IMG/VR virus record: IMGVR_UViG_3300028738_000008
DNA length: 64,000 nt
Source: a virus
Taxonomy: Duplodnaviria > Caudoviricetes
Strand: one strand, 5' to 3'
Shown here: piece after piece, positions 7,395 through 12,091 of the stretch
Numbering within the stretch: position 1 is the stretch's first letter
Layout: every line of letters begins with the position of its first letter
Position numbers and translations under genes: made by a program
Notes under the pieces: model-generated
What the model was told of the DNA's origin: nothing
Seen by the model: the letters and a program-made list of their open reading frames with translations, nothing else
Databases searched by the model: none

Positions 7395-8279
7395 ATGACA
7401 GATTTAGAAGTTATTAACAAATTGCTTGCTTCGAAAAAGCCAAGCGATATTTTTGAGGCTGATTGGAAGAAAACATACATTACGTATTCCAAGCTAATTC
7501 ATCCAGACTATAGTTCATTATCCAAAGCAAGCGAAGCAATGGCAATCCTCAACGGTTATAAGGATTTAAAGGAAAATGGCGCAGAGTATGAGGATGAAGC
7601 TGGTAAGTTTCGTGTCTTTGACGATAAGATAGTCTACGCAGTGACTGCGGCGAATAAAGCTTTAATCACCGCTTCGTACAATAACTATCGAATCTTCAAA
7701 CAAAAAACAGATGCTGCTTCAAAGAACTTTCAGAAATACATGCCTGAAAGCATGGAATTAACTGCCGATAAACTTACCGTACATTTATTGAATCGAGCAG
7801 TACCTCTTACAAATCAAAAATTGTCACAAGAGCATGTTAATTGGATATTCAGCAGACTGTTTGAATACTCATTATATATTCAAAGTCAAGGTTATTCCCA
7901 TTTAGGCTTTAATCCGACATCTGTATTCGTCGTGCCAGTTAATCATGGCATTATATGCACGACTTTTTATCACATGGCAAAACTGGACGGCAAAGCTAAG
8001 ACAATTTCAGCAAAATACAAAATGTGGTATCCAGCAACGCTTTTTACAAAGAAAATTGCGACAGATGATATTGATCTCGAATTAGCAAAGAAGATATCCT
8101 TATACTTGCTTGGCGACAAATCAGCCGCTGGTATGAAGCTAAAGACTGATAACTCCATTCACAAGGAGATATTAAGTTTCCTGATCACAAAACACGAATG
8201 CTCTTTAGATACCTATGCCAAGTACAGGGAACTATTGAAGAAGCATTTTCCGCCAAAATTTTTTGATTTGAATTTGTAA
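7395..8279 (+). CDS. J-domain (HPD) + degenerate protein-kinase-like domain
   Basis: WKKTY...LIHPD...AMAILN; kinase catalytic-loop position reads HLGFNPTS. Confidence 0.6.
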   Translation: MTDLEVINKLLASKKPSDIFEADWKKTYITYSKLIHPDYSSLSKASEAMAILNGYKDLKENGAEYEDEAGKFRVFDDKIVYAVTAANKALITASYNNYRIFKQKTDAASKNFQKYMPESMELTADKLTVHLLNRAVPLTNQKLSQEHVNWIFSRLFEYSLYIQSQGYSHLGFNPTSVFVVPVNHGIICTTFYHMAKLDGKAKTISAKYKMWYPATLFTKKIATDDIDLELAKKISLYLLGDKSAAGMKLKTDNSIHKEILSFLITKHECSLDTYAKYRELLKKHFPPKFFDLNL

Positions 8280-8296
8280 AAATAATTGCAAAATTT

Positions 8297-8325
8297 TGTA
8301 ACATTTTTAAAGTTCATACGTATAA
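8297..8325 (+). promoter_or_regulatory. ECF-type promoter 2
   Basis: TGTAAC-N16-CGTATAA. Confidence 0.85.
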
Positions 8326-8377
8326 GTTATTTTAAGTATCAATATAAACATCAATTTTTAATTTAAATTTTATTATC

Positions 8378-8503
8378 ATGGGAAATCCAGTACATTCAGA
8401 ATTCAAGTCTTTCGAAGAGGAAGCAGCAGCATCAGAAAATGCAACAGTGGTAGCACCAGCAGAAGAAGTTGCTAACGTTGTAACACCTGAGCCAGAAGCA
8501 TAA
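8378..8503 (+). CDS. 41-aa acidic peptide (not in ORF track)
   Basis: MGNPVHSEFKSFEEEAAASENATVVAPAEEVANVVTPEPEA; its TAA overlaps the vWA ATG (TAATG); first ORF after promoter 2. Confidence 0.6.
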   Translation: MGNPVHSEFKSFEEEAAASENATVVAPAEEVANVVTPEPEA

Positions 8504-9426
8504 TGGGCGGTGGAAAATGGACGGAAGATGCGTTTGCAACCATAAGCGCATCCAAAAGAGGTAAATCGGCTTCGGAAATCTTCGCAAGCGAAGAATCAGT
8601 TGATATGACCCCAAAGATTCTTGTTGACAAGAACAGAGAATCAAGGGATAGCGACGAGCATCCAGAATCTTTAGCCGTAATGGTATTTGTCGATGTTACA
8701 GGCAGCATGGGAATGGTTCCTGAAAATATCGTAAAAAACAATCTTGGTGGACTGATGAACACCATCATCGACAATGGCATCAAAGACCCACAGGTCATGT
8801 TTGGAGCAATTGGAGATCATATCAGCGACGACTCTCCGCTTCAATTAGGTCAATTTGAATCAGAGACAACTTTGATTGACAGCTGGCTTACAAAAATGTA
8901 CATCGAAAGAGGCGGTGGCGGTGGTAATCACGAAAGCTACCTGTTAGCTTGGCTTACTGCTGGAAGGCACACTTCGATTGACTGTTTCGAAAAAAGAAGC
9001 GTAAAAGGTTTCTTATTCACAATCGGCGACGAACGTAGCTGGACTGAAATCAATTCTAATTATCTGAAAAAGGTAATGGGGTATACTCAATCCGAAGACG
9101 TTACTGACGTACAGTTGCTTGCAGAAGCACAGCGAATGTATAATGTATACCACATTCATGTAAATGAAACTGGTTACAGAAACGACTCGCTCGTATTCAA
9201 CTACTGGAAAGATTTGATGGGACAGAATTTCATTGTTCTTGAAGACTACACCACGATTTGCGAAACTATCGCCACCGTTATTGCCATGCAGAATGGTATT
9301 GACATGGAAAAAGTAACTAGCAAATTTAGTGCAAAAACATCCAGCACAGTTACCAATGCTTTAATGGTATTGTCTAAATCAGGCGATTCTATTTCAAAGA
9401 ACGATACAGGGGTTATTGAACTATAA
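8503..9426 (+). CDS. von Willebrand factor A (vWA) domain protein
   Basis: VFVDVTGSMG MIDAS-like motif, GGGGNHESY, FLFTIGDE. Confidence 0.85.
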   Translation: MGGGKWTEDAFATISASKRGKSASEIFASEESVDMTPKILVDKNRESRDSDEHPESLAVMVFVDVTGSMGMVPENIVKNNLGGLMNTIIDNGIKDPQVMFGAIGDHISDDSPLQLGQFESETTLIDSWLTKMYIERGGGGGNHESYLLAWLTAGRHTSIDCFEKRSVKGFLFTIGDERSWTEINSNYLKKVMGYTQSEDVTDVQLLAEAQRMYNVYHIHVNETGYRNDSLVFNYWKDLMGQNFIVLEDYTTICETIATVIAMQNGIDMEKVTSKFSAKTSSTVTNALMVLSKSGDSISKNDTGVIEL

Positions 9427-9442
9427 CAACTGACACGAATAT

Positions 9443-10040: not shown

Positions 10041-10071
10041 TTAACTGTTGTTTTAGGTTTTGATTATGCTG

Positions 10072-10079
10072 GTATTTAT
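10072..10079 (+). promoter_or_regulatory. putative late promoter motif GTATTTAT
   Basis: 14 nt upstream of the GIY-YIG gene. Confidence 0.5.
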
Positions 10080-10093
10080 ATGAAAATAATATT

Positions 10094-10924
10094 ATGAAAA
10101 TATACATGATCACGAACTCAATAACGCATGATTTTTACATTGGCTCTGCTATAAATTATTCAAAAAGAAAGACTAATCATCTAACTTTGCTAAAACACAA
10201 TACTCATAAAAATACATATTTGCAAAATTCATGGAATAAATATGGCAAAGAGGCTTTCACTTTTGAAATTCTTGAAGAAGTTGATAGTAAGGAAATGTTA
10301 ATTCCTATGGAGCAATTTTGGATTGACACCTTATCGCCAACCTTTAATATTTGCAACACAGCTGGCAGTCCGTTGGGAGTTAAGCATACAGACGAAGCCA
10401 GACATAACATGTCAATTGCACATTTAGGATTAACTACAGAGGAAAGAGGACATACTAAAGGCTGTAAATGCACAATTTGTAATCATCAAATAGGCATAAA
10501 CAGTCCCAGATATATTAATCGAGAAGAGCGAATATGTGCTTGTGGCTGTAAGGCTTCCTTTACATGCATGATAAATTCAAAAAAACGATTTGTTAGCGGT
10601 CATAATAAATCTCAGTTAGGAAGGGTTAAATCAAAAGACACAATTGACAAACAAAAAGCATCATTAAAAGCCTATTTCGAAAATGGTGGAATAGGCGCAA
10701 ACAAGGGCAAAAAAATGAGTGACGAACAAAAAGGCAAAATGGGTGTGAATAGACGAATTCCTATTTTACAATATGATATAAATAATAATTTTATTAAAGA
10801 ATGGGACGGTATTAATATTGCTGCCAAAGAACTAAGCATTAAAGTTGGGCGAATACAAAATTGCTTAAAGAAAAAAAACGGAAAAACTGGAGATTTTATT
10901 TGGAAATATAAATTTAATAACTAA
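10094..10924 (+). CDS. GIY-YIG homing endonuclease with NUMOD3/NUMOD1-like C-terminal domains
   Basis: KIYMITN...FYIGSA...KR...H...N..LQNSWNKYG...EQFWID; PILQYD...FIKEW...AAKEL. Confidence 0.9.
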   Translation: MKIYMITNSITHDFYIGSAINYSKRKTNHLTLLKHNTHKNTYLQNSWNKYGKEAFTFEILEEVDSKEMLIPMEQFWIDTLSPTFNICNTAGSPLGVKHTDEARHNMSIAHLGLTTEERGHTKGCKCTICNHQIGINSPRYINREERICACGCKASFTCMINSKKRFVSGHNKSQLGRVKSKDTIDKQKASLKAYFENGGIGANKGKKMSDEQKGKMGVNRRIPILQYDINNNFIKEWDGINIAAKELSIKVGRIQNCLKKKNGKTGDFIWKYKFNN

Positions 10925-10930
10925 TTGATT

Positions 10931-12091
10931 ATGAACAGTTCAGTGGTAGTCGGGCTAGGATATGGCGACGAGGGTAAGGGAAGCATGGTTAATTTCCTTT
11001 GTAAAAAATATTATAAAAAGCCGCTAGTGGTCAGGTACTCTAGCGGCCACCAAGTAGGACATACTGTTGTCGAAGGTGATAAAAGACATGTCTTTTCAAA
11101 TTTCGGCTCAGGAACGCTATCAAATGCGCCTACATACTGGTCTGAATACTGTACCGTCAATCCTTCCGCAATAAGATCAGAGGGGAAAGCACTAGCGGCA
11201 TTGAAAGTGTTTCCGACATTATACATAAACGACAACGCTATGATCACAACGCCATATGATATATTAAAAAATCGTATGGTTGAAACAAAAAACAGGCATG
11301 GAAGTGTTGGCGTTGGGTTTGGCACGACGATTCAAAGAAATGAGGATCATTTCAAATTATATGCCAGAGACTTACGTTACCCAAAGGTGTTCGAAGCCAA
11401 ATTAAAACAAATTAGCGACGTTTACTATAAAGAAACTTTTAAAGAATATCCAGCAGATTACATCGAAAAGCATATTGCCAATTTTAAGGCTGATTGTAAG
11501 CACATTCTACATGAATGCATGTTTTCTTCAAGTCTTTGGGAAGTTCTTGAACATGGGTACTATAAACATATTATATTTGAAGGTAATCAGGGTATCATGC
11601 TTGATCAAGACTTTGGGTTCTTTCCGAATGTTACCAGAGGTAGTACCACTTCAAAAAATGCTTTTGAGTTGATGAAGTCAATTAAGATGAATCCTAGTAA
11701 TGCTGACGTTTATTATATAACACGTGCTTATGCTACTCGTCACGGTAATGGCGAATTGGCTAATGAAGGCATGCCCACATCATATATCAAAGACAATCCG
11801 CTTGAAACGAATGTATTAGGCGAATTTCAAGGACATTTCAGAAAAGCACCACTTGATTTAGAAACATTAAAGTATGCAATGTCTTGTGATAAAACTTTCA
11901 ATCAGAATGGAACGTCAATGCTGGCTGTAACATGTCTTGACCAAATTCCAGAAAGAATACCGATCATAAATGGCGATAAGATTGATTTATTATATCCATC
12001 ACAAATCGGCTCAATTCTGAATATTAGTCCGCAAAACATCTTGGTGAGCAATTCAGACAAAGGACTATTTGTAAATCCAATTGAACTATGA
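10931..12091 (+). CDS. adenylosuccinate synthetase (PurA)-like protein, divergent
   Basis: GLGYGDEGKG P-loop, GHT, FEGNQG..LD.DFG.FP.VT, TR.Y.TRHG.G. Confidence 0.85.
   Translation: MNSSVVVGLGYGDEGKGSMVNFLCKKYYKKPLVVRYSSGHQVGHTVVEGDKRHVFSNFGSGTLSNAPTYWSEYCTVNPSAIRSEGKALAALKVFPTLYINDNAMITTPYDILKNRMVETKNRHGSVGVGFGTTIQRNEDHFKLYARDLRYPKVFEAKLKQISDVYYKETFKEYPADYIEKHIANFKADCKHILHECMFSSSLWEVLEHGYYKHIIFEGNQGIMLDQDFGFFPNVTRGSTTSKNAFELMKSIKMNPSNADVYYITRAYATRHGNGELANEGMPTSYIKDNPLETNVLGEFQGHFRKAPLDLETLKYAMSCDKTFNQNGTSMLAVTCLDQIPERIPIINGDKIDLLYPSQIGSILNISPQNILVSNSDKGLFVNPIEL

Follow-up and report, generated by a model that had tools for sequence, protein, structure and literature searches.

A 64,000-nucleotide stretch of DNA from a tailed virus (Duplodnaviria; Caudoviricetes; IMG/VR record IMGVR_UViG_3300028738_000008), referred to in full as the window, carries a gene for a 307-amino acid von Willebrand factor A (vWA) protein (positions 8503 to 9426, + strand) and, 3' of it, a gene for a 388-amino acid homologue of adenylosuccinate synthetase (AdSS, PurA; positions 10925 to 12091, + strand). 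The linkage of the vWA and PurA-like genes across phages and bacteria is far beyond chance. The two genes belong to a genuine accessory module with horizontal transfer between bacteria and large phages, and by sequence criteria the PurA-like enzyme appears to be a neofunctionalised PurA paralogue and not an ordinary AdSS.

Linkage of the vWA and PurA-like genes across genomes

Two sets of loci were analysed. The phage set consisted of 84 loci, namely 80 from IMG/VR, one further locus overlapping one of these, and three from isolated phages. The bacterial set was drawn from a species-genome collection, in which the vWA profile matches at least 562 contigs; the best 80 were examined. The vWA gene was located directly 5' of the PurA-like gene in 80 of the 84 phage loci, and the remaining four have no DNA where the vWA gene would be. 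The PurA-like gene was located directly 3' of the vWA gene in 78 of the 80 bacterial loci, and complete chromosomes of Dactylosporangium, Kitasatospora and Flavobacterium are among the carriers. Homologues of both proteins are also encoded by isolated phages (approximately 200 cluster C mycobacteriophages, 10 Rhizobium phages and 6 Vibrio phages), and in the isolated-phage records examined the two genes are neighbours. The gene order in Sebata is kinase, vWA, an 88-amino acid open reading frame (ORF) and PurA. An earlier note on the window, made from the sequence alone, had called for a comparison of gene neighbourhoods across phages and bacteria, and on this point the outcome is decisive: the genes do co-occur elsewhere. 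No description of the vWA and PurA-like pair, or of a trio, was found in the literature searched, which did not cover a 2016 survey of RNA repair; the R2K and SAK domains discussed below are reportedly named in that survey.

Gene fusions were considered as evidence of linkage and rejected. Fifteen longer proteins were found, and the seven examined comprised three of kinase-vWA and four of vWA-PurA-like type. Their linkers were mostly Arg/Pro/Ala-rich junk, and the downstream part started with a methionine of its own in all seven. The apparent fusions resemble frameshifts or read-through by the gene caller in GC-rich genomes, and they were not counted.

Active site and ancestry of the PurA-like protein

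The PurA-like protein belongs to Pfam family PF00709 (E = 6.5e-46), and its closest matches in the PDB are bacterial AdSS. It is approximately 45 amino acids shorter than PurA. The protein was aligned with E. coli PurA (b4177) and with PurZ of phage phiVC8, and the residues at the active-site positions were tabulated for 84 phage and 78 bacterial sequences. Residue roles (catalytic base and acid, contacts to the phosphate of inosine monophosphate (IMP), aspartate/hadacidin binding and guanine recognition) are those we take to be established in the structural literature on E. coli AdSS. On this basis, Asp13, His41 and Gln224 are presumed to be catalytic, Asp333 to specify guanine, and Arg143 to be contributed by the partner subunit of the PurA dimer.

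The P-loop GDEGKG is present in the PurA-like protein, and D13, K16, H41, Q224, T239, D333 and mostly S414 are retained across the 162 sequences. Asp13 was observed in 80 of the 84 phage rows, the other four being gapped, and in all 78 bacterial rows. In the same 162 sequences the aspartate-binding loop is replaced, with T300 changed to F/Y/W, T301 to an invariant Gln, R303 deleted and R305 changed to F/L. The ligands of the IMP 5'-phosphate are altered as well (N38 to Q, T129 to V/C, R143 lost), and among N38, T129, R143 and T239 only T239 is kept. Further changes include R131 to a hydrophobic residue, V273 to an invariant His, and K331 to C/H. Thus the phosphotransfer part of the PurA reaction looks intact, and the part that handles aspartate looks rebuilt, as does some of the IMP-phosphate site. 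As the aspartate pocket has been lost, the product of the enzyme is probably not AMP.

The earlier note had described the gene as a divergent AdSS homologue, and profile scores and phylogeny agree with that description. Against the NCBIfam models for PurA, the protein scored 127 bits relative to a cut-off of 402 (NF002223) and 110 bits relative to 396 (TIGR00184); against the NCBIfam model for PurZ it scored 39 bits relative to a cut-off of 300. Each of the five bacterial genomes checked encodes both a canonical purA (550 to 608 bits) and the vWA-linked paralogue (149 to 203 bits). In a maximum-likelihood tree, every vWA-linked PurA-like protein falls in one clade (support 98/94), separate from canonical PurA (92/95), and PurZ lies outside the PurA-like clade, on a long branch. 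Within the clade, the phage and bacterial proteins are interleaved, and at least 5 to 7 changes are needed to account for their distribution. The mycobacteriophage protein groups with members from Chloroflexota, Saccharibacteria and Planctomycetota, and the proteins of the Rhizobium and Vibrio phages with members from Pseudomonadota (Massilia, Competibacteraceae).

Partner genes, promoters and inserted genes

The window derives from an uncultured giant phage; a contig of 237,608 bases encodes a protein with 100% identity to the window's PurA-like protein over 99% of its length, and the stretch is present in many peat metagenomes. The GC content of the window is approximately 35%. No nucleotide-level relatives were identified among isolated phages, and the nearest bacterial homologues of the vWA gene, among the matches listed, are from Bacteroidota. 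The genes named in the earlier note were all recovered in their positions on the + strand, and its remark that no purB-like partner lies in the window was borne out by a tblastn search with E. coli PurB, which gave no match.

The vWA protein corresponds to phrog_2971. It had no match in Pfam, the Pfam VWA profiles included, and its naming as a vWA protein is supported by the predicted fold and by the motif of the metal-ion-dependent adhesion site (MIDAS). The model (predicted local distance difference test score, pLDDT, of 90.5) has a Rossmann-like vWA/integrin beta-I fold, and the MIDAS residues of the window's protein (D64-x-T66-x-S68) are invariant across the vWA family as D64-x-T66-G-S68. 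The family is also marked by its N-terminus. All phage vWA partners and 79 of the 80 bacterial ones start with Met-Gly, usually in the pattern MGxxx[W/Y/F][S/T/D], and the Met-Gly start persists down to approximately 30% identity. Co-variation between vWA residue 6 and PurA-like column 300 was considered and rejected; a raw excess of W-W and Y-Y pairs was noted, and on the tree this reduced to 4 independent pairs (p ~1). Separately, four vWA homologues (P0131, P0133, P0136 and P0138) were observed to carry an insertion of approximately 250 amino acids, which splits the domain after profile position 173.

Directly 5' of the vWA gene is a 41-codon ORF (8378 to 8503, + strand) that encodes an acidic peptide with an MG start, an S-F-E-E-type motif and an acidic tail; its stop codon overlaps the vWA start codon as TAATG. 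Homologous small ORFs were found directly 5' of the vWA gene in approximately 30 loci of the clade with the kinase-like gene, and often overlap or abut the vWA start. Their products have an MG start, an S-F/L-E-E/D-M/L motif and an acidic tail rich in Thr, Glu, Pro and Val, usually with a terminal Glu; 16 of the 31 echo the vWA pattern as MGxxx[Y/F/H]S. Judged by these homologues at the same place in related loci, the small acidic peptide of the earlier note is the product of a genuine conserved gene.

The first gene of the module in the window (7395 to 8279, + strand) encodes a protein of 294 amino acids. Its AlphaFold model (pLDDT 94) comprises three N-terminal helices followed by a protein-kinase fold. 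The residues H36-P37-D38 (HPD) are placed in the loop between the helix at 24-35 and the helix at 45-61 (helices II and III), and HPD is retained by 35 of the 37 phage homologues and 45 of the 46 bacterial ones. The Pfam DnaJ profile (PF00226) matches 21 of 31 homologues (best E = 1.6e-5), and the window's own protein gave no match at E <= 1. The structure matches of the kinase fold were PAK1, DCLK1 and CHK1, at E values of approximately 1e-6 and template modelling (TM) scores of approximately 0.5. The catalytic-loop Asp is always replaced by Gly or Ala (H-x-[G/A] at the H-R-D position), there is no invariant N-lobe Lys, and an invariant His-Gly pair downstream was taken as occupying the position of the Asp-Phe-Gly (DFG) motif. 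Since HPD is kept, the catalytic Asp is replaced and the N-lobe Lys is not invariant, "J-domain pseudokinase" is a fair name, and the earlier description of a J-domain/kinase-like gene fits an HPD between helices joined to a dead kinase fold.

The J-domain pseudokinase was detected in 44 of the 84 phage loci, with the window and mycobacteriophages among its carriers, and precedes the vWA gene in 46 of the 80 bacterial loci. Where it is missing, a conserved protein of 116 to 125 amino acids with a coiled-coil appearance is encoded directly 5' of the vWA gene. These proteins form one family across phages and bacteria (E values of 1e-40 to 1e-56), with no Pfam match. The gene was found at L073:6734-7105, at L110:6648-6998 and in approximately 50 other loci, always directly 5' of the vWA gene. 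With the J-pseudokinase in about half of the loci and the protein of approximately 120 amino acids in the others, the obligate unit consists of the vWA and PurA-like genes, with two alternative third partners. The co-evolving module of three genes put forward in the earlier note was therefore upheld as a conserved and co-inherited unit, the J-pseudokinase being part of it in only about half of the loci.

The three "ECF promoters" (extracytoplasmic function sigma factor type) that the earlier note placed in this region are real copies of one motif, TGTAAC-N17-CGTATAA. The first is found 5' of the J-pseudokinase gene (7345 to 7373), the second 5' of the peptide and vWA genes (8297 to 8325), and the third 5' of the 171-amino acid ORF, endonuclease and PurA-like genes (9478 to 9506), all on the + strand. 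The window contains 13 exact copies, all on the + strand between 7345 and 31938, with 0 expected by chance; further copies lie just 5' of the genes for RtcB (15176), Ro/TROVE (24677) and a Dda-like helicase (30477). A dihydrofolate reductase gene (29798 to 30400, + strand; PF00186, E = 2.6e-28) was noted just 5' of the motif copy at 30396. No sigma factor for the motif was found among the window ORFs scanned, so "ECF" describes the shape of the motif only. By its recurrence, the motif would define a phage promoter class common to the module, RtcB, Ro/TROVE, the helicase and others.

Terminator-like hairpins on the + strand were found around these genes. One with a 16-pair stem followed by a T-rich tail (7288 to 7323) closes a gene for a 1626-amino acid protein, a second with a T-run (9447 to 9478; -19.3 kcal/mol, z -6.5) follows the vWA gene, and the next predicted 3' of the PurA-like gene is at 13061 to 13087. 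The motif copies and hairpins together suggest three units, namely the J-pseudokinase gene; the peptide and vWA genes; and the 171-amino acid ORF, the endonuclease gene and the PurA-like gene onward. The 1626-amino acid ORF itself (2394 to 7274, + strand), directly 5' of the module, had no NCBIfam match, and its single PHROG match spans 40 residues.

The vWA and PurA-like genes of the window are interrupted, as had been noted earlier, by one hypothetical gene and a homing endonuclease gene. The former is an acidic ORF of 171 amino acids (9525 to 10040, + strand), a lineage-specific insert outside the conserved module; homologues were found only in two overlapping loci from the contig of the closest relative, and scans of Pfam, PHROG, PADLOC and NCBIfam gave no family match. 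The latter is a mobile, free-standing GIY-YIG and NUMOD1 gene (10094 to 10924, + strand) that has inserted where the PurA-like gene begins, and its GIY-YIG domain, NUMOD module and presence or absence at a fixed site are those of a homing endonuclease. At least 14 other phage loci have a related endonuclease gene at this junction of the vWA and PurA-like genes. An endonuclease-free allele was observed in peat runs X13 and X24; in it, position 10048 is joined to 10946 with 27 other letters between, and the PurA-like gene has a different 5' end. The endonuclease gene is thus a live presence/absence polymorphism in the peat population.

Genomic context and possible functions

The window carries an RNA-repair-type set of genes on the same strand as the module: RtcB (15176 to 16501), an R2K-clade ATP-grasp gene (18192 to 18911), Ro/TROVE with its own vWA domain (24677 to 26296) and HAD_SAK_2 (33097 to 33642). 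An R2K-clade ATP-grasp homologue is located directly 3' of the PurA-like gene in 27 related phage loci, and HAD_SAK_2, RNA ligases, ATP-dependent DNA ligases and an Rv2179c-type exoribonuclease recur near the phage modules. In Sebata, Pnk lies two genes 5' of the kinase-like gene, and in Vibrio phage Va1, TROVE lies 2.3 kb 3' of the module. Among five distant phage records, RtcB and R2K were each found in one only; TROVE was found in the three isolate records and not in the two IMG/VR records. NAD (nicotinamide adenine dinucleotide) salvage was considered as a constant phage partner and rejected, a NadV-type gene being present in only 3 of 10 module-carrying phage genomes.

In bacteria, a gene for NrtR (Nudix and winged helix) precedes the module in 37 of the 80 loci. 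In Chryseobacterium and Flavobacterium the module lies amid genes for NADAR, Macro, DUF4291, Sir2, Tpt1/KptA and ADP-ribosylglycohydrolase, and the loci with such dense ADP-ribose islands are L124, L129, L136, L139, L144-L150, L156-L157 and L164. The module is thus embedded in gene sets of two known kinds, phage RNA-repair sets and bacterial NrtR-linked NAD/ADP-ribose islands. The earlier note had suggested counter-defence or host takeover. As the module is also found in bacterial chromosomes beside NrtR and ADP-ribose genes, it is not phage-specific, and counter-defence is only one possible use of it.

The reading we favour, to which we give somewhat less than an even chance, is that of a vWA-bound PurA-family ligase which couples a purine nucleotide to some amine that is not free aspartate; in phages it would help to control damage to nucleotides, NAD/ADP-ribose or RNA ends during infection. 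The enzyme would still phosphorylate a purine nucleotide at its 6-oxo group with GTP, and the activated nucleotide would then be joined to the amine. It would work in complex with the vWA protein; since Arg143, a partner-subunit residue in PurA, is gone, the vWA protein may supply a replacement contact. In the lineage of the window, the J-domain pseudokinase would bring host DnaK to the complex, and the acidic Met-Gly peptide, whose translation would be coupled to that of the vWA gene, would act at the same site as the vWA N-terminus. A comparable arrangement exists in the MoxR-vWA systems (CbbQ/CbbO, NorQ/NorD), in which a MIDAS vWA protein is an adaptor between an enzyme and an ATP-driven remodelling machine. 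Unlike these, the module has no AAA+ partner, and by analogy that role would fall to Hsp70/DnaK, brought in by the J-domain. The module, whose three promoters are of one class with those of RtcB, Ro/TROVE and other genes of the strand block, would keep infection going in a stressed or defending host.

Several observations weigh against this reading. The substrate, the nucleophile, the product and the complex are all inferred. A phosphate or carboxylate site could have been restored by new arginines that are invariant in the family (R138 and R238 in the phage protein), and IMP and even aspartate would then be compatible with the sequence. Approximately half of the loci have no J-pseudokinase, and no copy of it was detected in five complete or near-complete phage records (Rhizobium, Vibrio and three from IMG/VR). 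The contexts also differ, with RNA repair in phages and NAD/ADP-ribose in bacteria, and the low count of NadV-type genes counts on the same side. Finally, the context common to related phages may be inherited synteny and not functional coupling.

The shared Met-Gly starts of the vWA protein and the peptide lead to a further reading, in which the nucleophile is not aspartate but a free glycine amine. Once Met1 is removed, the glycine of the vWA protein and of the acidic MG-peptide would attack the 6-phosphoryl purine nucleotide and receive an N6-linked, AMP-like group. The near-universal Met-Gly start of the vWA family and its copying by the peptide would be expected under such a scheme, as would the change of a charged aspartate pocket into aromatic-Q-G-x-F/L; kinase-vWA "fusions", which would bury the glycine, look like artefacts. 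Such a protein-nucleotide conjugate, if real, would be new to biology, and would then be acted on by the ADP-ribose- and RNA-end-processing enzymes linked to the module, or by DnaK that the J-pseudokinase would bring in. However, the association of vWA residue 6 with column 300 vanishes on the tree, the invariant Gly2 may instead serve folding or binding, and we know of no enzyme chemistry of such a kind on proteins, which also counts against it. Overall, we regard N-terminal conjugation as unlikely.

A slightly poorer prospect is that the gene encodes an ordinary AdSS, carried as an auxiliary metabolic gene that boosts AMP and ATP, with host PurB finishing the pathway and the vWA protein and J-pseudokinase unrelated or simple regulators. 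The protein shares with PurA (EC 6.3.4.4) the fold and the Pfam family, the GDEGKG P-loop, Asp13/His41/Gln224 and Asp333, so that the catalytic and GTP-site residues are kept, and the strength of the PF00709 match and the PDB matches point the same way. The window has another nucleotide-metabolism gene, that for dihydrofolate reductase, and NrtR-controlled expression in bacteria would suit a supply of adenylate for NAD synthesis. Against this, all four aspartate-loop residues and two IMP-phosphate ligands, T129 and R143, are replaced throughout the 162 sequences, and V273 has become His. The protein scores one third of the curated PurA cut-off, its family forms a separate clade, and it co-exists with a true purA in the bacteria checked. 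The near-obligate adjacency of the vWA gene would also be left unexplained.

Signalling or defence of the TerY-P type, with the PurA-like protein as an effector that makes a toxic or signalling nucleotide and the phage copy as a decoy or a means of superinfection exclusion, is considered improbable. The TerY-P triad consists of a TerY-type vWA protein, a Ser/Thr kinase and a PP2C phosphatase, and the module would resemble it in having a stand-alone MIDAS vWA protein beside a protein of kinase fold. Archaeal fusions of kinase-vWA-like type were seen among the structure-atlas matches, and Sir2, Macro and ADP-ribosylglycohydrolase are among the bacterial neighbours. However, the kinase of the module is dead across its family, without the catalytic Asp and Lys, and has a J-domain; no phosphatase family is prominent among the phage or bacterial neighbours; the constant partner is the PurA-like gene; the PADLOC defence models gave no match; and NrtR control favours metabolism over immunity.

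A PurZ-type synthase making 2-aminoadenine (Z) DNA is very improbable, since the match to phrog_1211 (E = 6e-58), which has a PurZ-derived label, is outweighed by the retained Asp13, the low score against the PurZ model, the position of PurZ outside the PurA-like clade on a long branch, and the lack of a DatZ homologue in the window by tblastn with phiVC8 DatZ. In PurZ, the Ser at the Asp13 position decides dGMP selectivity (bioRxiv 10.1101/2025.10.22.683976). Phage PurZ (N6-succino-2-amino-2'-deoxyadenylate synthase, phiVC8 gp27) and the PurA-like protein are both phage-borne PurA paralogues of the same PHROG; however, PurZ uses aspartate and travels with DatZ and MazZ, whereas the PurA-like protein has lost the aspartate loop and is partnered by the vWA protein and the J-pseudokinase. 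The probability that remains beyond these readings was assigned to something else.

The conserved MG peptide, the alternative partner of approximately 120 amino acids, the shared promoter class, the tree, the test for two purA genes per genome and the endonuclease polymorphism are new here. So far, PurA has had two functional forms, PurA itself and phage PurZ. If the favoured reading is true, the PurA-like enzyme would be a widespread third form that uses another second substrate and has an obligate partner protein. Large phages with the module number in the hundreds, and it occurs on at least 562 contigs in the species-genome collection; cultured, tractable carriers are available among cluster C mycobacteriophages, Rhizobium and Vibrio phages, Chryseobacterium, Massilia and Dactylosporangium. 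It adjoins two themes, NAD/ADP-ribose turnover and RNA repair in the conflict between phage and host. Identification of its product could bring to light a new nucleotide metabolite or protein modification, and could explain why giant phages invest in the module.

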